The notes beneath the pieces are model-generated. The model saw only the letters and a program-made list of their open reading frames with translations. It had not been told where the DNA came from and made no database searches. Of a stretch of DNA of 64,000 bases, positions 3,001-58,371 are shown in pieces. The stretch comes from a virus. The stretch lies in IMG/VR virus record IMGVR_UViG_3300046333_000090. One strand, given 5' to 3'. The position numbers were made by a program, and so were the translations under genes. Within the stretch, counting starts at the first letter, position 1, and each line of letters opens with the position of its first letter.

Positions 3001-5347
3001 ATTCATTAGTGTAGTTGTTATTGGTATTGTCATTGTTAGAATATCTGACTGCCAATACATTACTCACATTACTATATCCTAAAGATAGTTCAGGATCATC
3101 ATAACGAATACCATAGTCAGAAGGAACTACATCAGTTTTTGACTTAATGTACTTTATTACTTTATTTTGTATTAAAGTATTAGTAGTAATGGTTGGGGTG
3201 AGTAATTCTACGGTATAAGAAACTAACCCATTCCCAGTAAAGGGCACTCCTAGATTTACTAAAGTTATTGTGTTAATCCCTGTAAATGTACCAACAAAAC
3301 TTCCTACACTGGTCTGCACTAGCGTATCTCCACTATAAATTTCATTAATATTTTGATTTGGCAGTACGCCCACATTATTTGTGAACGATATTGAACTGTT
3401 TCTTATAATAGAAATAGTTTTGTTGGTGGTGTCTTTGATATTCTTATCTGTTAATGGCACATATAAGTTTTTGTTATTACTTTTTAGTATAGTAACAGAT
3501 TTGTAGATGGTATCAATATTTTGAGAAGTAAAGCTATTGGATAAAGAAAGAGTAGTATTATTTAAAATGCCATCAACTGTGGTAATAACCCCAGCCAAAT
3601 TTATATTACTTCCAACATGTAATTCTGATATAAATTTAGAATTAATACCCGTTAAGGTTGTGCCATTGACATTGAAGTTGCTACCAGTCAAAACAAATTC
3701 TGTTTTTAATGTTGATGCCGCAAATCCGACTCTACCAATACTTCTAATATCATCAATCAAGTAATCTCTTATTTCCAATATATTGTTGATGATATTGTTT
3801 TTTGAGTTAATAATTGGTTCGTTCAAAATAAATGTACCTGTATTGTTCTCCAACGTAATCATATCACCAACTACTGAATATACATATCCAGAAGAACCAG
3901 AAATTGTTCCAGTCACATGATCGCCATAGACGATATTAGTTAATGCCCCACTTACTCTTAAATCGGTGTGAGTGGATAAATCTATCACATACAGTCTCAC
4001 CGAATTTTGAAGATAATTAATCGATACGGCTTTGGCTACCCCAATAATCTTCGATGGGGTAGCTACAGTGCTAGTACTATATAAATTTATATTTTGTGGT
4101 GATGATGATACATCTAACATACCGCCTATGCCACTAATTTCAAGATAAGACCCACAATCTATGAATGATTGGTGATTTATTCTTCGGTTTGTTTTGGTGG
4201 GTAGGTCTACGGTTATTAATTGTTTATCTGGAAACTTGTAATTGTACCCCTTTACTACAGCATCGCCAGCAGACAATTCCACAGAAAAGTAATCATTTCC
4301 ATTGATCTTATTTGGTTCACTCACCAATGGATCTACATTGATTACTGTTCTATTTTGATCGTCTACCTCATTTACTTTATATACACCATTATTAAATAAA
4401 TTATCTAGTGTTGGGTATACATTAATGTCAAAATCCTTGAGTACATAATTGCCAGCTTGTTTGTAAGTCTGAACCGCAATTGCATCAATAATTTGAGTAT
4501 TTACACTTACATCGATTTTGTAATTGATATTTCCATTCAATATTTGTACTAACTCTGTGTAATTAGTAGGAATGGCGGAACCATAAGTAAGTTTTACTAC
4601 ATTTGCTAATATTTGTAATCTGTCTGCTCCAACAGCAGCACAATTATTGAATCCATTCGCATTATCTGTTAAAGTTGCGTCATCTACAGCAGTGACAAAT
4701 TTAGGAGTAAATTGTATCCCAATACTATAATTACCTGTGTTGGTGTATTGATCTAATACCACACTAGTATTGTTCAGGTTGGTATAGTACCCGTCCCAAT
4801 AAAATGTGCCCTGATTTACGTGTACTATACTTGAATTATATAGTGTACTATTCGTGCTAATAGTTGTGGCAAATTTAATATTATTGAATGACAATATTTC
4901 ATTATCTGCAAATTTGTTATATTGTACTCCCATCAATACAGTACCACCACTAACATATTTTACATATAATGATGGTTTGGATATAGTACTATTCTTTTTG
5001 CTTACATATGCAACTACTATGGCTTGTACGTTTGTAGTATTACCTTTAATAGTTTTGCCAATTAGTTTATTTATTTCTACATCGGGTGTATTGCCATTAA
5101 ATAGATCATTTAATAATACTACATCTACCTCTTTGTCATGAGTAATCTCACCACCAGAAATCAAATCTCCATTTTGGTATTGTACATCAGATAAAGATTT
5201 TATTTGATTCTGAGCAATACTTTGTAGATTATTTAATTCTCTAGCTTGGATCGGATATCCTGGTTTAAATAATACTTGGTGATAATTTTTGGATTTGCCA
5301 AAATCATCATGATACGGTGGGATGTTTGTGTTGATTTTGTCGGTCAT
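1..5347 (-). CDS. Very large virion structural/baseplate protein (DUF4815/VrlC-like, cyanomyovirus type); 3' end runs off the window
   Basis: ATG at 5347; N-terminus MTDKINTNIPPYHDDFGKSKNYHQVLFKPGYPIQARELNNLQS matches the PY.DDF...LFKPG.P.QAREL motif of these proteins. Absent from the ORF track, probably because it is open at the window edge. Confidence 0.8.
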   Translation of the reverse strand, partial: MTDKINTNIPPYHDDFGKSKNYHQVLFKPGYPIQARELNNLQSIAQNQIKSLSDVQYQNGDLISGGEITHDKEVDVVLLNDLFNGNTPDVEINKLIGKTIKGNTTNVQAIVVAYVSKKNSTISKPSLYVKYVSGGTVLMGVQYNKFADNEILSFNNIKFATTISTNSTLYNSSIVHVNQGTFYWDGYYTNLNNTSVVLDQYTNTGNYSIGIQFTPKFVTAVDDATLTDNANGFNNCAAVGADRLQILANVVKLTYGSAIPTNYTELVQILNGNINYKIDVSVNTQIIDAIAVQTYKQAGNYVLKDFDINVYPTLDNLFNNGVYKVNEVDDQNRTVINVDPLVSEPNKINGNDYFSVELSAGDAVVKGYNYKFPDKQLITVDLPTKTNRRINHQSFIDCGSYLEISGIGGMLDVSSSPQNINLYSTSTVATPSKIIGVAKAVSINYLQNSVRLYVIDLSTHTDLRVSGALTNIVYGDHVTGTISGSSGYVYSVVGDMITLENNTGTFILNEPIINSKNNIINNILEIRDYLIDDIRSIGRVGFAASTLKTEFVLTGSNFNVNGTTLTGINSKFISELHVGSNINLAGVITTVDGILNNTTLSLSNSFTSQNIDTIYKSVTILKSNNKNLYVPLTDKNIKDTTNKTISIIRNSSISFTNNVGVLPNQNINEIYSGDTLVQTSVGSFVGTFTGINTITLVNLGVPFTGNGLVSYTVELLTPTITTNTLIQNKVIKYIKSKTDVVPSDYGIRYDDPELSLGYSNVSNVLAVRYSNNDNTNNNYTNECFDNITISNNSLFNVGDIVYNKNIKAKIIGITGNILNLIYYSSNHFNIADTAFNWNTATTSTVTNVYRGNYIDVTGNYKLIKNSNNNIHDIDKLTIINNSNIPTNHLVVVFDYFNTSIGDITSIDSYINPTDDIETNIIDLRYYAKSPTIVGLGNLLSPYSLLYSGLNPSTRLLKLRSFPAPSTILKGDYNYYTPRTDLLIIDTTGKCRIISGISANNPNNPDLPQDCLAIATLQIPPVVKAISDIKTVVYPNKRYTMEDIGNLEKRIKNTENEIALNKLESTANNTVLLDNTGIVRLKTGFVVDEFLNYQLSDISNLAYKSSINPDDQTLVPKTASKNIKLKINNGSYKISNNLISLPYTEATFIEQNNKNYVLKVNPYALNNWEGVINTHPSSDNWFYGDYSDKENWLPITSNKSTKKNTNTNNYLKQQTIKINIDALKPNTKLDVYINSKNITDLVVPSTCVIKKDGTNGTNTISFVVGEKLLWRNVNTRVLTGSRYQPTVLSNYISAKVDSLSSGVYTGTTNTIKINWNDGYQFNVEDIGVGTYIIGQTSGAIAILTNTDIISDDNGNFAGNVFIPNPTKSDYKFSVGTLVLSAIGNTTFAKTIFQCGGNSNIETKDIISLSIPENNDTNIIQNQINGNIINNNGWNSPITQSFNNNIVGGCFITSLELFFNKKDNFIPLIVQLRTVENNYPTETILPYSEISVNTKDIVTSSDGNTPTIIKFNNMVYLKDNTQYCICVLSNSNNYEIFSNDFEVKNTTDIVSIKNPNISNLYVPQNYKNWIADNKKSIKFKLNKAKFSLTGNINFNNEDNLPEIIGNYITTTKNSNLVSVYSKNHGMHTTNNSVTIKNIVSNYIPTILTDIISDTQYTVATTIPVETPELVPQFINNLPISITNPGYIKIDDEILSYINVNNGTKLITIPAGGRGKNNTSIIQHLTNSVVEIYSINGIPLVELNKTFTSIVPIDLDNFGVYAISSANYTNVCGGDNISVSVNHQY

Positions 5348-47055: not shown

Positions 47056-47248
47056 TTTTTTATCTGTTACTTTTTAAAATTATTCTTTGTAACTGTAGTG
47101 AGATCCAAGAACAGTTTAAATAAACCCATCCTGCATGTTTAATTACTGCCAATGGTCTAAAGCCAAAAAGATCTATATAAATCCATTTTGAATCAAACTC
47201 TCCCTTGTGAAAATATATCCTATTGTGCTTAATCATTAAATTTAATAA

Positions 47249-48052
47249 TTAAGCAGAGTGTAATAATGATATTAATTGAATAGATTCATTTTGATAATGC
47301 TGTTTTCGAGCAGCAGAATAAGCAGCAGCAGTAGCAGAATCAGCAGCAGCAGAATAAGCAGCAGCAGTAGCAGTAGCAGAATAAGCAGCAGTAGCAGAAT
47401 AAGCAGCAGCAGAAGCAGAATAAGCAGCAGTAGCAGAATCAGCAGCAGCAGTAGCAGTAGCAGAATCAGCAGCAGCAGTAGCAGAATAAGCAGCACAAGC
47501 AGCAGAATAAGCAGCAGCAGTAGCAGAATAAGCAGCAGCAGCAGTAGCATAATCAACAGAATAAGCAGCAGAACGAGCAGCATACCATTCGTTTTTACTC
47601 ACTTCCTGTATTAATGCCTTTTTATGTAATTCTGCTACATCTACTATACACTCATCATTACTAAATCTGATTACTCCTCGTTCTGGATCTAATAATCTCC
47701 ATATAGCTAATTTGTGTAATACTGGTTGTAAACACACTCCTACTGGTATAGCTTGTATAGATTCTAAAGGAAATCTCATAGCATCATCATTAGGCAATCC
47801 TTCAAATATATTATCAAATAAATAGCATATCCATTCTGGTAATCCAAAAAAATTACTCATATCTTTATGAGAATTAGAATGAATGCAACAACCTACATGA
47901 CACCCCTTACCATTTTGCCAATAGTGACCTTTAATTATTTGATCGTGGGCATAGTGGGATTGTAGTTGATATAGGAGATCTTGTTTGAGTTGGTCATTAC
48001 CATAGAAAGATAAATTATTGTAACGAGTGTAGGAGTGGGTATAGTCGATCAT
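47249..48052 (-). CDS. Early protein with an Ala-rich tandem repeat tract
   Basis: N-terminal GKGCHVGC domain, then (A)nYS/DS repeats; sigma70 promoter upstream. Confidence 0.75.
   Translation of the reverse strand: MIDYTHSYTRYNNLSFYGNDQLKQDLLYQLQSHYAHDQIIKGHYWQNGKGCHVGCCIHSNSHKDMSNFFGLPEWICYLFDNIFEGLPNDDAMRFPLESIQAIPVGVCLQPVLHKLAIWRLLDPERGVIRFSNDECIVDVAELHKKALIQEVSKNEWYAARSAAYSVDYATAAAAYSATAAAYSAACAAYSATAAADSATATAAADSATAAYSASAAAYSATAAYSATATAAAYSAAADSATAAAYSAARKQHYQNESIQLISLLHSA
47308..47583. repeat. Imperfect tandem repeat (GCA)n-GTA/GAATAA encoding A/T/Y/S
   Basis: About 14 units of gcagcag(tagcag)aataa. Confidence 0.9.
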
Positions 48053-48076: not shown

Positions 48077-48105
48077 ATCATATCATCACTGATTTAGATT
48101 GTCAA
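48077..48105 (-). promoter_or_regulatory. sigma70-type early promoter TTGACA-17-TATGAT
   Basis: Exact spacing; its upstream ~50 bp is repeated at 55153-55203. Confidence 0.8.
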
Positions 48106-48154
48106 CTATTAATTTTGTGGTATGAGAGGGGTCTAGAATGCCCTGTAAGGGGGG

Positions 48155-53430: not shown

Positions 53431-54015
53431 TTATACTATCTCCAGATTTCTATATTTTAACTCGATAGAATCTTTTAAAGCTTGCTTCTCATGTTCCTCC
53501 AAACCACCTCCATTAAAGAAATAACTAAACTCTGAAAAATCTATAATTTTATTTTTTATCTCTTGCTGCTTCTTCTCAATCGCGATAGTGCGAATGAACG
53601 CAAAATAACAAATTTGAGTAAAGTAGGAGAATGGGTTAGTACTTATAGCAGGATCGAAATTGGTGATAGACTTTAGACAATTTTCTACTGCATTATTAAT
53701 CATGTCCTGTTTATAGGTATAATTAACAAATCCACCACCTTGAGAAAATCGATATGCAATCTTTTCTATCTGAATTAATAAGTAATTACTTACCATTGGT
53801 TTATCTAGTATATTAGCAATTAAATACTCGTAAGTGCATCTAAGATAATACAATTTTAATATATTAGTAGTAGAGGGTAACTGTTCTTTAAAGAGAATTA
53901 TTAAATTTAATACTTTGGATTTCCAGTCGAGTATCTTGGTCTTGTGTTCAATCAAGGCATCTGCAAATGCTACATTGTCAACATAGTGTTTTGGTTCTTT
54001 GGTGGTTCTTGGCAT
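53431..54015 (-). CDS. gp55: Late sigma factor gp55
   Basis: HYVDN..F..AL; FVNYTYKQDMI..AVENC...FDP..STNPFSYFTQICYFAFIR.I..EKKQ. Confidence 0.93.
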   Translation of the reverse strand: MPRTTKEPKHYVDNVAFADALIEHKTKILDWKSKVLNLIILFKEQLPSTTNILKLYYLRCTYEYLIANILDKPMVSNYLLIQIEKIAYRFSQGGGFVNYTYKQDMINNAVENCLKSITNFDPAISTNPFSYFTQICYFAFIRTIAIEKKQQEIKNKIIDFSEFSYFFNGGGLEEHEKQALKDSIELKYRNLEIV

Positions 54016-54102: not shown

Positions 54103-54135
54103 TAAATCCCTCCTATTGTTAATAGGAGGGATTTA
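54103..54135. terminator. Hairpin terminator after the dual-coding locus
   Basis: TAAATCCCTCCTATT-GTT-AATAGGAGGGATTTA. Confidence 0.7.
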
Positions 54136-54197: not shown

Positions 54198-55127
54198 CTA
54201 ATCAAACATTACATCTGCTGTAATGTTTCGTTGAGGAAACGGGAAGCTAGAGTTTGATTTTCTGGTGCCACTAGATCCATCAATTTCTTCAGGAGTTCCT
54301 CCAAGAGCGTAAAATAACTTTGTGAACGGTTTAATAATAACTTCGTCGAGGACTGTGAAGTGTTCGTCGAGGACTGTACTGATTTTAACGTTGCTGTCAT
54401 AAATTTTTTCAAATATTCCAGTAATGGTTGATCGATCTGCCAATAAAGTAGTTTTATCTTGTTGTACATTTTCTGATTGCATATTTTCAATCGCTTGACT
54501 TGTTCGGAGTCTGATGGATGAATTGTTGTCATCAACAACTGCATTTGATTCATCGAGTATTGCATACGCCCCCCCCACGCTTCTATTTGTGCTATCACTT
54601 CCAACACTGGTTCTGGAATCATAAACTTCTCCAACATTTCCCACAAAACTTTGATGTGAAATTTCTGGTTGCATGGATTCCATTTTATTAGATTGCGAAT
54701 CTCGCTGTAGGTCTTTTTCGTTTGTGTCTGACCAGTTGTATTTTCGTACTTGATTATATCTGATCGTAATTTTGAATTTATGTTTTTTAAATGACCGTTT
54801 TCCATATCCAAGCCAGTCATTTTGTCCTGACATTGGGTAGCAAAATCTTTTTCTTTCTTGGATGTTTTCTCCAGTTGACTGACTTTTTCCTTCAGTCTGG
54901 CTATCTCCAATTCTGCCAATCTCAGCTTTTCTGCTATCTTCATAATCCTGTCCTTCGCTCTTAGCAAATTTGGCAATCAATCGTTTAGCACAACCCAAAC
55001 TAGCCACTTTAAATGATTCTAATCCATCAATTACAACCAACCAAAATGGTGATTGTTTACCAGATTTAGTAGTGTGTCTAATTAATTCGATCATCTCAGT
55101 TAAAGTGGTTTGTTTGGCTGTCTTCAT
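54198..55127 (-). CDS. Hypothetical protein, frame 0 of the dual-coding locus (start may be 55094)
   Basis: 309-codon ORF behind a TTGACA-17-TATAGT promoter (55130-55158). Confidence 0.6.
   Translation of the reverse strand: MKTAKQTTLTEMIELIRHTTKSGKQSPFWLVVIDGLESFKVASLGCAKRLIAKFAKSEGQDYEDSRKAEIGRIGDSQTEGKSQSTGENIQERKRFCYPMSGQNDWLGYGKRSFKKHKFKITIRYNQVRKYNWSDTNEKDLQRDSQSNKMESMQPEISHQSFVGNVGEVYDSRTSVGSDSTNRSVGGAYAILDESNAVVDDNNSSIRLRTSQAIENMQSENVQQDKTTLLADRSTITGIFEKIYDSNVKISTVLDEHFTVLDEVIIKPFTKLFYALGGTPEEIDGSSGTRKSNSSFPFPQRNITADVMFD
54209..54943 (-). CDS. Hypothetical coiled-coil protein nested in the +1 frame
   Basis: ATG at 54943 preceded by GAAGGACAGGATT (SD-like); MKIAEKLRLAELEIARLKEKVSQLEK heptads. 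Confidence 0.6.
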   Translation of the reverse strand: MKIAEKLRLAELEIARLKEKVSQLEKTSKKEKDFATQCQDKMTGLDMENGHLKNINSKLRSDIIKYENTTGQTQTKKTYSEIRNLIKWNPCNQKFHIKVLWEMLEKFMIPEPVLEVIAQIEAWGGRMQYSMNQMQLLMTTIHPSDSEQVKRLKICNQKMYNKIKLLYWQIDQPLLEYLKKFMTATLKSVQSSTNTSQSSTKLLLNRSQSYFTLLEELLKKLMDLVAPENQTLASRFLNETLQQM

Positions 55128-55220
55128 TAACTATATCAGTGAAGGTATAGTTTGTCAACTATTAATTTTGTGGTCTGAGGGGGGTCTAGGATGCCCCGTA
55201 AGGTGTCTCGATCTGGGAGT

Positions 55221-55400
55221 TTGACACTCCCCTGCCTAAAGGCGAGGAGATTCTTCTCTCAATGACGCACCTTGCCCACGCAGGTTTGCCCCAGCGAAAG
55301 TAGAGGTTATGGGTGAGATAACTAAAGTGACGGGGGTTTCCGATAACCCAATTCTGACAATTCTGGGTCTTTGTATTCCGCAAAAGTAGTCGCAATTCTG
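55221..55400 (-). mobile_element. IS605/IS1341-type right end / TnpB omegaRNA remnant without tnpB
   Basis: - strand ...AAGAATCTCCTCGCCTTTAGGCAGGGGAGTGTCAA; GC-richer than flanks; far boundary approximate. Confidence 0.7.
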
Positions 55401-55449
55401 CAAAAATAGGAATAAGGCTTTGTACGATATGTCCTAGACATTTTATTAA

Positions 55450-55887
55450 TTATAAATTTTTATAAATATTCTCCAAAGAATTTTTGATCGAAATCATCTC
55501 AGGAGAATTTTGATTATTATCCACCCCAACTTCTTGTAACACTCCAGTATATTCAACAGAATTGAGATACATATTGTAATATTCAAACATAGTAGGACTC
55601 ATATCTCCCCAGACTACTACATCTTTTTGATTCATATGAAACGTATTATCAGAACTATTACTCATCCACGGTGATAACTGGTAGTTCATAATCATCCGAC
55701 CACCAGAAATAATTGTTATTGGTCTAACCACCAGTGGATCGGTAATATAAAAAGACCCGTCTTCTTGTTCTTCAAGATCGTCTGGGATATTGACAAATCC
55801 AATAATTTCCTCATTTGTAACTAATTTAATAGCAGCAAAGAATTCTAAATCTTGATTTTCAGCTTTTGAGTCTGGAGTTAACATCAT
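55450..55887 (-). CDS. Conserved T4-like protein downstream of uvsW (Sm-like fold)
   Basis: FAAIKLVTNEEIIG...DP.V...PWM..S.D..F. Confidence 0.7.
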   Translation of the reverse strand: MMLTPDSKAENQDLEFFAAIKLVTNEEIIGFVNIPDDLEEQEDGSFYITDPLVVRPITIISGGRMIMNYQLSPWMSNSSDNTFHMNQKDVVVWGDMSPTMFEYYNMYLNSVEYTGVLQEVGVDNNQNSPEMISIKNSLENIYKNL

Positions 55888-58271
55888 TTTTTCTTTATTA
55901 AATCTATTTCTGTTATGTTAAATTCTAATTCTTCTTCGGAATAATATTTGATTCTGTCCATCAAATGATCGATAGTATAATTTTTTATATTACCTACACT
56001 AATGTTATCCGCGATATCATATATAGTAGCACGTTGTTTAGAATCATGCAAACGTAAACCTCTCCCTATACTCTGTAAATTGCGTATTCTAGATTTATTT
56101 GGTGATGCGAATATGATATTATGTAGGTTTTTAATATTTATACCTTGTTGGTATGTCTGGTAGGATGCTATTATCACACCATTTTGTTCGGTTTCTACTA
56201 ATTGTCTAATTCTTTCTCTCTCGTCACTACTAATTTTTCCATATACTAAATGTATACTTTTTTCTGGTAGTTCTTTAGTGAACTGTTCATATAGTGGCAG
56301 ACCTTGTTGTTCTACTCTACTGAATAATACCAAAGTATTGCCTTTTAGTCTAGAAACTAAATTTTTGATAAAGTTATTTCTAATTTGGTGAGTGACTAGA
56401 TATTCTAATTCTTCTGTGTACGTTGCAAACATTCGATATGGGTGCTTCAGAATAAGAATTTTAATAAAAACATCACTAATTTGTTTATTTTTAATTAGTT
56501 CGGTAGTAGTGACTACTTGTTTACAGTCACCAAATAAACCCATTAATTGTAATTTATTAGCTTTAGCACCATCTAGAGTACCAGTAAATCCAAATCTATA
56601 TTTACATTGATCTAGATGTTGTAGGATGATAGTCAATGATTTGGCAACAGCAGTGTGGCAATTGCCTGTTATAACAACTTTACCATTGTGGCGAACAACA
56701 ATATTTCCTGTTGGCACTTTCACACAATAAACTTTGCCATTATAATCGATTTCAGATTTAGTTATACCTCGACAACCTATTCTATTAATATGTTTACTAA
56801 TAAATAATCTATAAACATCATTAAACGTATCAGATCTATTATCAACTTGAACGGTTTGATTAGTGTGGTAATTACATAGCACCGCCATCGCCTGATAAAA
56901 ATCAACATTGGCTTTAATAGTTGAACTATAGTAGTATAAACCATTTTTTGTAATACTTCCATCCCAACAAACCATTTCTTCAATAATTTGTCTACATACA
57001 TCTAGTGACAATTCCGCAATATTAAAATAATCTGATATATTTTTATAAGCGTATGAAATGCCACTCACCAAAAATCTTCTTTTATCCTTTACGTTGCCAT
57101 TACGTTCAGTTCCCTTGACTTCTCTAAAATTAAAGTCACCTTTAGACATAATATCTAAAAATTTATTTATTTTACGTTGTTTTGAAAACGTAAAATCTAA
57201 AGTTAAAGTTCCATTTATATCAGTGTGCCACAAACTACCATCCGCTTGGAAAGCAATTAATAACTTATCTAATTCAGTCAATTCTGTTTTAATATTTGAT
57301 GTTGTCAAACCACAAGTTTTAATAGTCCAATTACCATTATTATAACTAACATCTTTATGAGACTTTTTAACATGATTTATTTTATTAAAAAGTAAAATTT
57401 CGTGATTTGGTGTGGTAGTTAAGCTTATTCTTCTGTCAGAACTAGCATTAATCAATTTTCCACTATAGTCATTTTCAATATAACAAATTGGTTTTACAAA
57501 AGATATTTCATTTGTGTCTGAATCATATTGGGCAACTAATTCAGTTTTATCTAAACAATCAAATCTAACAAATCCTTTATTGGTGAGTATTTCTGTATCT
57601 GGGGTAAAGCATTCGTCCACTTGAACGCATCCATACTGTTTGAAATATGATTTAGGCTGAGTATATATACCTTGCCACGTAGACATCACTATTGGTTTAT
57701 CTGATTGTTTTTCACGATCTTCAAATATTTCATGAATTAATCTAACATCCATACCATAACTAACAAATTCTTTTTTAGTTTGTATTACTAAACTAGTATT
57801 TGGAAAAATTATCAAGACTTTAGTAAAATCTTTATAATAATTAGCCAAAATATAAAGAGACATGCTCTTGCCGCTACTTGTTGGAGACAGTATTAATTTT
57901 CTATTATTAAATATACACTCCTTAACAGTATCTATCTGATAATCTCTAAGAGAAAATGGCAATTTTAGAGATTTTATATATGTATCTACATCGTAATTAC
58001 ATTTTTCATTTACATCTGGTGAGATTTCATATGTATAATTATTATCCTTCAGAAAATTGGTGAGATGATCTAGTAGTCCATAATATAATTGCCCACCAGT
58101 AACAGAGAATAATCTGATTTTTCCGTCCCACGCACCATTCTTATATGCTGGCATATATTTGTAGCCAGATACTTCAAATGAGTAATAATCATTCAATATA
58201 TATCTCAGTTCAGCATCACACTCTACAATAATGTAGAGTTCATTCTTTTTTTTAATCCTAACGTCAGTCAT
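55884..58271 (-). CDS. uvsW: UvsW helicase with intein
   Basis: WDGKIRLF, LRDYQ, SPTSSGKS, VDE|intein|CH, GFTGT, LQSIGRGLR; start set at MTDVRIKKKNE. Confidence 0.94.
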   Translation of the reverse strand: MTDVRIKKKNELYIIVECDAELRYILNDYYSFEVSGYKYMPAYKNGAWDGKIRLFSVTGGQLYYGLLDHLTNFLKDNNYTYEISPDVNEKCNYDVDTYIKSLKLPFSLRDYQIDTVKECIFNNRKLILSPTSSGKSMSLYILANYYKDFTKVLIIFPNTSLVIQTKKEFVSYGMDVRLIHEIFEDREKQSDKPIVMSTWQGIYTQPKSYFKQYGCVQVDECFTPDTEILTNKGFVRFDCLDKTELVAQYDSDTNEISFVKPICYIENDYSGKLINASSDRRISLTTTPNHEILLFNKINHVKKSHKDVSYNNGNWTIKTCGLTTSNIKTELTELDKLLIAFQADGSLWHTDINGTLTLDFTFSKQRKINKFLDIMSKGDFNFREVKGTERNGNVKDKRRFLVSGISYAYKNISDYFNIAELSLDVCRQIIEEMVCWDGSITKNGLYYYSSTIKANVDFYQAMAVLCNYHTNQTVQVDNRSDTFNDVYRLFISKHINRIGCRGITKSEIDYNGKVYCVKVPTGNIVVRHNGKVVITGNCHTAVAKSLTIILQHLDQCKYRFGFTGTLDGAKANKLQLMGLFGDCKQVVTTTELIKNKQISDVFIKILILKHPYRMFATYTEELEYLVTHQIRNNFIKNLVSRLKGNTLVLFSRVEQQGLPLYEQFTKELPEKSIHLVYGKISSDERERIRQLVETEQNGVIIASYQTYQQGINIKNLHNIIFASPNKSRIRNLQSIGRGLRLHDSKQRATIYDIADNISVGNIKNYTIDHLMDRIKYYSEEELEFNITEIDLIKKK
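56661..57611 (-). other. Contiguous intein (317 aa) in the UvsW DExH box
   Basis: DE|CFTPDTEILT...TPNH...VYCVKVP...VVITGN|CH. Confidence 0.9.
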
Positions 58272-58371
58272 GAATGCCCCAAAACCTTTAATAAATTTAT
58301 AGAATGGCACAAAGTATCTCATTACTATTTAGAGGGGGTCACAGGGCATTCTATACCCCTCTCAGAGCATA

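Follow-up and report, generated by a model that had tools for sequence, protein, structure and literature searches.

The window analyzed in this study, a stretch of 64,000 nucleotides from a T4-like cyanophage (GC content, ~31%), probably carries a true pair of overprinted genes that are read from the same strand and lie within an early, mobile cassette. The outer member of the pair, ORF A, occupies positions 54198-55094 on the minus strand (298 codons plus stop, counted from a conserved ATG that opens the sequence MIELIRH). The inner member, ORF B, occupies positions 54209-54943 on the same strand (244 codons plus stop from its ATG) and lies wholly inside A, in the +1 frame of A, with the two stop codons 11 nt apart. 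The initial annotation of this DNA had described a same-strand dual-coding locus with a nested +1 ORF, an arrangement that we confirmed for both minus-strand frames, and it had offered a true overprinted early gene pair as one of two explanations. Our findings argue for that explanation, given that both frames are open in two relatives and beyond what chance allows, that B is under purifying selection, and that the promoter ahead of the locus is conserved.

Cyanophage gp55 genes were the only matches returned by the DNA search. The late sigma factor gene gp55 itself follows the locus (53431-54015, minus strand; PHROG 234, E value of 1e-37), and the locus is preceded by an Sm-like gene (55450-55887, minus strand) and a gene for a UvsW helicase with an insert (55884-58322, minus strand). 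The gene order in relatives equals that of the window, namely, UvsW, the Sm-like gene, a 60-aa ORF, the family member, gp55, gp47, and gp46. The ORF list gave A a longer form of 309 aa beginning at ATG 55127 (54198-55127, minus strand). However, the A relatives P0002, P0003, P0004, P0006, and P0007 all start at MIELIRH, which corresponds to ATG 55094, while ATG 55127 sits just 2 nt past the -10 hexamer and is replaced by a non-ATG codon in L001 and L006, two related loci described below. For these reasons, the true length of A is most likely 298 codons, and the 309-codon form is probably an over-extension. A TTG start would extend ORF B to 54209-54976 (minus strand).

The two frames divide into segments that carry different constraints (all on the minus strand). 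The N-domain of A (54951-55094; residues ~1 to 48, with ~45 aa conserved) lies outside the overlap. Six +1 stops occur inside A, five of them in the first 50 codons, which encode the N-domain, and the sixth being the stop of B itself. ORF B starts with an N-terminal coiled coil (54860-54943; residues ~1 to 28) and continues into a conserved core (54395-54736; residues ~70 to 183), the DNA of which encodes an apparently unconstrained spacer in A. Two copies of a 21-nt unit follow at 54341-54377, read as the heptads TVLDEHF TVLDE in A and as an S/T/N-rich linker in B. The last segment is a tail (54198-54336) that appears to be constrained in both frames, given that it encodes a C-terminal motif in A (QRNIT..V.F) and the C-terminal helix of B. 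A G8 homopolymer at 54569-54576 lies within both frames and is absent from L001 and L006; a one-base slip there would give full-length A/B chimeras.

Relatives of A are few, with P0002, P0003, P0004, P0006, and P0007 recovered among 5.8 billion clusters, and those with DNA were P0002 (locus L001), P0007 (locus L006), and P0006 (locus L003). Since L001 and L006 were both found through protein A, the openness of A in these loci is partly expected, but that of B is not, and the B frame there serves as an unbiased test. It had been anticipated in the initial annotation that both frames would stay open in relatives and that homologues keeping a single open frame would speak against dual coding. Both frames are open in L001 and in L006, which are diverged from the window. 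P0002 is a full-length A relative that is 52% identical to A, and its locus, L001, is 77% identical to the window in DNA, with an A of 353 aa, a B of 301 aa, the same ATG, and A and B stops that are 8 nt apart. All indels between L001 and the window are multiples of 3, and L001 carries a 42-nt insert in the coiled-coil region of B that equals exactly two heptads. The tail of L001 is 89% identical to positions 54198-54336 of the window. L006 encodes an A' of 257 aa and a nested +1 B' of 204 aa, yet what it has in common with the window is limited to the promoter cassette, the N-domain, and the tail, and the bodies of the two loci are unalignable. BLASTP of the window proteins against those of L006 found the tails alone (E value of 0.001 for A and 0.03 for B). 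The +1 ATG in L006 falls in the same TAT-GA codons as in the window, the upstream +1 TGA is also the same, and the B' stop lies 11 nt ahead of the A' stop, as it does in the window. For P0004, the +1 frame was read degenerately from the protein and gave z values of 0.5 to 2.3 compared to 2.5 to 4.1 for controls. Scans of viral, metagenome, and genome contigs with peptide and DNA patterns returned no further relatives.

We estimated dN/dS separately in each frame, a check that the initial annotation had put forward. The window and L001 were aligned by codon over the 244 codons of the overlap, the 174 differences were sorted by their effect in each frame, and omega was obtained from an OLGenie-style estimate with bootstrap confidence intervals (CI). 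The omega for B was 0.55 (95% CI, 0.40 to 0.75), with 0 of 2,000 bootstrap replicates reaching 1, a value indicative of purifying selection; the omega for A over the overlap was 1.13 (CI, 0.81 to 1.59), and no amino acid constraint was detected. In the core of B (residues ~70 to 183), omega was 0.26 for B and 1.17 for A. Differences that were silent in B and changed A were enriched (60 observed versus 34.5 expected), and there was no enrichment of differences that were silent in A and changed B (33 observed versus 37 expected). Amino acid identity across the overlap was 68% for B, 59% for A, and 57% for the closed third frame, and in the conserved core of B it ranged from 0.66 to 0.90 for B versus 0.50 to 0.73 for A. 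With ~24% DNA divergence, the 174 substitutions were expected to create ~9 stops in A and ~10 in B, and none was observed in either frame. By these measures, B is a protein under purifying selection, and A within the overlap appears to be constrained only to stay open, with a body that evolves neutrally.

The alternative that survives best confines function to B and the short N-domain and holds that the A frame is open for some other reason, such as ribosome run-through that protects the mRNA, the tuning of B initiation, or the attachment of a short tail. We consider this unlikely, though far from negligible, given that it accounts well for an omega of ~1.1 for A across the overlap and 1.17 in the B core. 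It would also fit the hydrophilic composition of the A body, which is what the B sequence alone would yield, so that selection on this composition is indistinguishable from the effect of B. In addition, the N-domain stands alone in L003, where it forms a 75-aa protein (P0006) that is followed by an unrelated gene. However, the A frame is open far beyond what B would impose on it. In simulations in which the protein of one frame was held fixed while codons were resampled or permuted (20,000 trials), fixing B led to 8.5 to 22 expected stops in the A frame of the window, and fixing B' led to 10 to 24 in the A' frame of L006. Across the three sequences (window, L001, and L006), 8.5 to 31 stops were expected, and 0 of 20,000 trials were stop-free in each.

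The ends of A also argue against a function confined to B and the N-domain, given that the C-terminal motif and the heptad array ahead of it are retained in relatives with unalignable bodies. The motif ([QE]R[ND]IT..., then hydrophobic residues and a Phe) is found in all four full-length forms, and the tail of A is common to P0003 (E value of 0.001) and can be seen in P0002 and P0004. Just ahead of the tail, every full-length member has a tandem array of 7-residue units, with a copy number that varies (2 in the window, 2 in P0003, 4 in P0007, and ~6 in L001). In the A frame, these arrays read as heptads with hydrophobic positions, and in the B frame as S/T/N-rich low complexity. Among six proteins, the N-domain shows almost no variation. 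The AlphaFold2 (AF2) model of A was weak overall (mean pLDDT of 41), with residues 1 to 48 forming three strands and a helix (pLDDT of 60 to 77) and residues 49 to 190 lacking structure (pLDDT of ~30). For this model, the best VIA-align match in a fold search was to PH/FERM-like fragments (Z of 4.3), a value that carries no meaning for a domain of 48 residues and was discarded. As judged from sequence, the case for the importance of the whole of A consists entirely of stop avoidance together with the conserved tail and repeat array.

The base composition of codon positions in A is that of a gene, which also weighs against an A frame held open for reasons other than its protein. Frame A fits the genes of this genome in this respect and B does not, with third positions in B containing G at 0.30 and T at 0.17 versus 0.11 and 0.43 in other genes. 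The correlation of codon usage with the genome was 0.66 for A and 0.48 for B, compared to at most 0.59 for the +1 frames of other genes, although the difference between A and B was borderline (P = 0.09). Codon usage and phylogenetic distribution have been described as criteria for recognizing the ancestral frame of overlapping genes (PMC8227390). Given that the codon-position composition and codon usage of A are gene-like and that its distribution is wider, A is likelier to be the older frame, with B either overprinted on it or having arrived later together with the body.

Expression of the pair would begin at a sigma-70-type early promoter. The initial annotation had placed a TTGACA-17-TATAGT promoter ahead of the locus, and this element was recovered at 55158-55130 on the minus strand with 11 of 12 matches and an extended -10 TG; both hexamers are kept in L001, L003, and L006, and within the window the promoter recurs at 48099-48150. 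Upstream of the promoter lies a conserved cassette (55148-55203, minus strand) that extends into the -35 hexamer and resembles the promoter-early stem-loop (PeSL) elements of T4-type phages. The cassette, CCTTACRGGGCAT...AAAATTAATAGTTGACAA, is present twice in the window, and the second copy (48095-48150) is 91% identical to the first and shares an exact 18-mer with it; the cassette also occurs in L003 and L006. Genes downstream of the cassette vary among relatives, as in PeSL-mediated shuffling. In L006, the cassette occupies a different slot, after a gp46-like gene, and in L003 a homologue of the window gene at 47060-47236 follows the N-domain gene. The GC-rich upstream stretch showed no significant structure (z of -1.5), and Rfam gave no match within the locus. 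The terminator claimed behind the locus was borne out in part, in that a hairpin of 14 bp (54104-54134, minus strand; z of -4.5) lies 3' of both stops, but its T run is weak and a consensus terminator scan of the locus called none.

Directly behind the A/B cassette of L006 (positions 3807-4460 of that locus) and of the P0003 and P0004 contigs lies an orphan gene of 215 to 217 aa. The window has no such gene; in its place come the terminator and the gp55 promoter.

We infer that translation of B may start by internal initiation at its own ATG. The Shine-Dalgarno (SD)-like GAAGGA that had been noted ahead of ATG 54943 is present in the window and not conserved in L001. Since an SD core precedes only 5 of the 38 long ORFs of the window and such motifs are thus rare in this phage, the lack of conservation of GAAGGA is not a strong objection to an internal start. 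In the scheme that we propose, host RNA polymerase would begin transcription from the extended -10 promoter at 55158-55130, with the transcript starting just downstream of ATG 55127, and would produce a single short early mRNA that ends at the hairpin at 54104-54134. Protein A would be made by ribosomes that start at AUG 55094, and protein B by others that start on their own at the internal AUG 54943, in a register shifted by one base. In this scheme, A would consist of the conserved 45-aa beta-beta-beta-alpha N-domain, a disordered spacer of ~200 residues, the 7-residue array, and the C-terminal motif. Protein B, nested in the spacer of A, would be all-helical, with its N-terminal coiled coil, conserved core, and C-terminal helix. 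Given that the spacer of A would need no more than an open frame, the same DNA can hold a constrained second protein.

A different route to B, and the second explanation offered in the initial annotation, would be a programmed frameshift that gives alternative C termini; more broadly, a programmed +1 frameshift or transcriptional slippage could fuse the N-domain of A to B or swap the C termini. Its appeal lies in the layout of the locus, where the B frame opens just 11 codons before its ATG, directly behind the N-domain, and where the G8 run of the window has both frames open on either side. We find it very unlikely nonetheless. There is no A-frame slippery heptamer (X_XXY_YYZ) common to the window and L001, and L001 lacks the G8 run. 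Three lineages retain the +1 ATG in an identical position, and L001 has no other start codon between the stop and this ATG. Moreover, a single shift site has no need of parallel open frames over 200 to 300 codons.

The converse possibility, in which A is the sole gene and the absence of stops in the +1 frame is accidental, draws on the composition of the A spacer, which is poor in Leu, Ile, Val, and Met (LIVM content of 0.20 in A versus 0.26 in other genes), as well as on the lack of B homologues and a B codon usage that resembles an off-frame. However, the +1 frames of 30 other long genes in the window had 0.084 stops per codon, and their longest open run was 110 codons. With the A protein held fixed in the simulations described above, 5.5 to 12 stops were expected in the B frame of the window, and at most 2 of 20,000 trials were stop-free. 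Fixing A in L001 led to 4 to 14 expected +1 stops, and fixing A' in L006 led to 4.8 to 14.6, with a probability of none of at most 6e-4. This probability was at most 7.5e-4 throughout the three sequences (window, L001, and L006), and 4 to 7 stops were still expected when A's own composition and codons were used. Chance is thus excluded as the cause of the two open frames, in agreement with the earlier claim that such an arrangement would be very unlikely to arise by chance. Repeats of 21 nt were also considered as a cause and rejected: Tandem Repeats Finder (TRF) reported no array in the window locus, and the arrays in L001 (21-nt period; 3.7 and 2.4 copies) cover only a small part of it. Given further that B remains open despite ~24% DNA divergence, over which ~10 new stops were expected, that no bootstrap replicate brought the omega of B from 0.55 up to 1, and that L006 has the same nested frame in an unalignable body, the reading of A as the sole gene is close to refuted. 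A sequencing or assembly artefact, in which a single gene would have been split by a false frameshift at a site such as the mid-locus G8 homopolymer, is excluded for practical purposes, given that two independent assemblies (L002 and L004) are 100% identical to the window, including the G8 run, that the frames run in parallel over their whole length and not in succession, and that L001 and L006 keep both frames without this run.

The overprinted pair thus remains the probable reading, and we considered what its inner product might be. The beginning of B shows a regular a/d heptad pattern, and the AF2 model of B was all-helical, with a confident first helix (pLDDT of ~80 to 86 for residues 1 to 20 and 69 for residues 21 to 30) and low confidence elsewhere (mean of 47), in line with the coiled-coil start that had been read from the inner ORF. 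Neither A nor B has a lipobox or a transmembrane segment (maximum hydropathy over 19 residues of 0.9 to 1.3), as had been noted earlier. No B homologue was found in a word search of 5.8 billion proteins, an exhaustive phmmer search of 1.84 billion representatives, or a tblastn search of INPHARED; this is expected if gene callers always choose the longer frame, A. Searches of B, B', and A against Pfam, PHROGs, and PADLOC gave no significant match, the ESM Atlas gave no usable match, and among PDB sequences the only match to B was a weak one to CdiA (E value of 0.021). Both A and B are orphans. The position of the pair behind an early promoter is consistent with an early role of both products in the infection, such as host takeover or counter-defence, and an effector-plus-inhibitor role is speculation.

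We also considered a more ambitious, and in our view rather doubtful, interpretation in which A and B form an obligately linked two-protein module. The two proteins would cooperate, for example, as an effector with its cognate partner or as a tethered N-domain with a helical oligomer, and the variable bodies that give specificity would be encoded in the same DNA. The family (window, L001, L006, and probably P0004) would then represent a hypervariable, mobile dual-coding early-gene system of cyanophages that diversifies in an arms race with the host. If this were true, recombination between the conserved flanks could never split a matched A/B pair.

The pair, which we continue to read as two overprinted genes, can be compared to several known systems. 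In the Microviridae (phiX174 and G4), genes B and K are nested in A and gene E in D, with overlaps of ~56 to 120 codons in tiny single-stranded DNA genomes that are under size pressure. The present locus is similar in that a complete out-of-frame gene lies inside a larger gene on the same strand, and the nested genes of the Microviridae are expressed from the same transcript with their own internal start, as we propose for B. It differs in that the phage genome is at least 157 kb, with no obvious need for compression, and in that the nested gene is 204 to 301 codons long, covers ~80% of the outer gene, and appears to be the more constrained of the two. The nested genes of the Microviridae have been cited as the founding case of overprinting (PMC8227390). 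Another parallel is the Rz/Rz1 pair of lambda, in which a double-stranded DNA (dsDNA) phage likewise carries one gene entirely within the +1 frame of a second, same-strand gene. Both of these genes belong to the lysis cassette; Rz1 is a lipoprotein of ~60 aa with a lipobox, and Rz is anchored in the membrane by its N terminus. Unlike Rz and Rz1, A and B have neither a lipobox nor a transmembrane segment, and they are preceded by an early-type promoter and surrounded by replication and late-sigma genes. These features argue against a spanin pair of the Rz/Rz1 type, the neighbors here being UvsW, the Sm-like gene, and gp55.

A second gene placed in a variable spacer is also found in the hepadnaviruses, where the surface gene is overprinted on a spacer of the polymerase that is tolerant of sequence change, much as the spacer of A has an omega of ~1.1 and a predicted lack of order. 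Neither the organisms nor the proteins are related, and in our case both A and B are orphans. The hepadnavirus polymerase/surface gene overlap and its modular origin have been described previously (PMC8227390, section 8). With respect to mobility, PeSL cassettes are known to shuffle early genes in T4-type phages (Arbiol 2010, PMC2839356; Comeau 2014, PMC4122927). The cassette described here is similar in being a repeated composite motif that ends in an early promoter and flanks variable genes in differing slots, a likeness that is seen in the repeat and the promoter. PeSLs, however, are regulatory flanks without dual coding. Taken in this context, A/B is an orphan addition to the known class of overprinted phage genes, and what appears to be unusual is the length of the pair, the better conservation of the nested frame, and the persistence of the arrangement across unalignable bodies.

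The long nested out-of-frame genes that are familiar from tiny viruses have rarely been reported for large dsDNA phages, and gene callers are built to discard them. In this locus, conservation is stronger in the hidden frame, B, than in the annotated frame, A, which looks like a spacer over most of its length. With 0.9 kb, one promoter, and two orphan proteins, the system is compact and could serve to address how a second gene is born and maintained in a disordered linker and whether overlap acts as a linkage device in frequently recombining regions of phage genomes.

Several features elsewhere in the window were observed during this work. A GC-rich insert of ~122 nt (55220-55341, minus strand) interrupts the 60-aa ORF (MSRT[FY]RTKPYS...) within the small ORF at 55322-55441. 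Both L003 and the P0004 contig have an intact copy of the 60-aa ORF, and L001 begins inside it and contains its 3' part; the window has in addition lost the 3' part of the small ORF. A "transposase" gene of Nodularia phage kac65v151 (gp172) matches the insert over its 3' end and the first bases past it, 38 nt being 95% identical. The insert therefore has the look of a remnant that a TnpB-type element left behind, a solo right end (omega-RNA-like) for which the would-be guide is the ORF's own sequence. Behind the second copy of the cassette, a 267-aa ORF (47249-48052, minus strand) ends in a long Ala/Tyr/Ser tandem repeat (AAAYSAT...), and two more open frames are found there (47272-47583, minus strand, and 47276-47614, plus strand); these extra frames look like a by-product of the repeat and not dual coding. 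Lastly, the UvsW helicase at 55884-58322 is 812 aa long and contains an intein-like insert (CFTPDTEIL ... VVITGN|CHT), and the UvsW on the P0004 contig is 1145 aa long, with matches to Hom_end_hint and LAGLIDADG.
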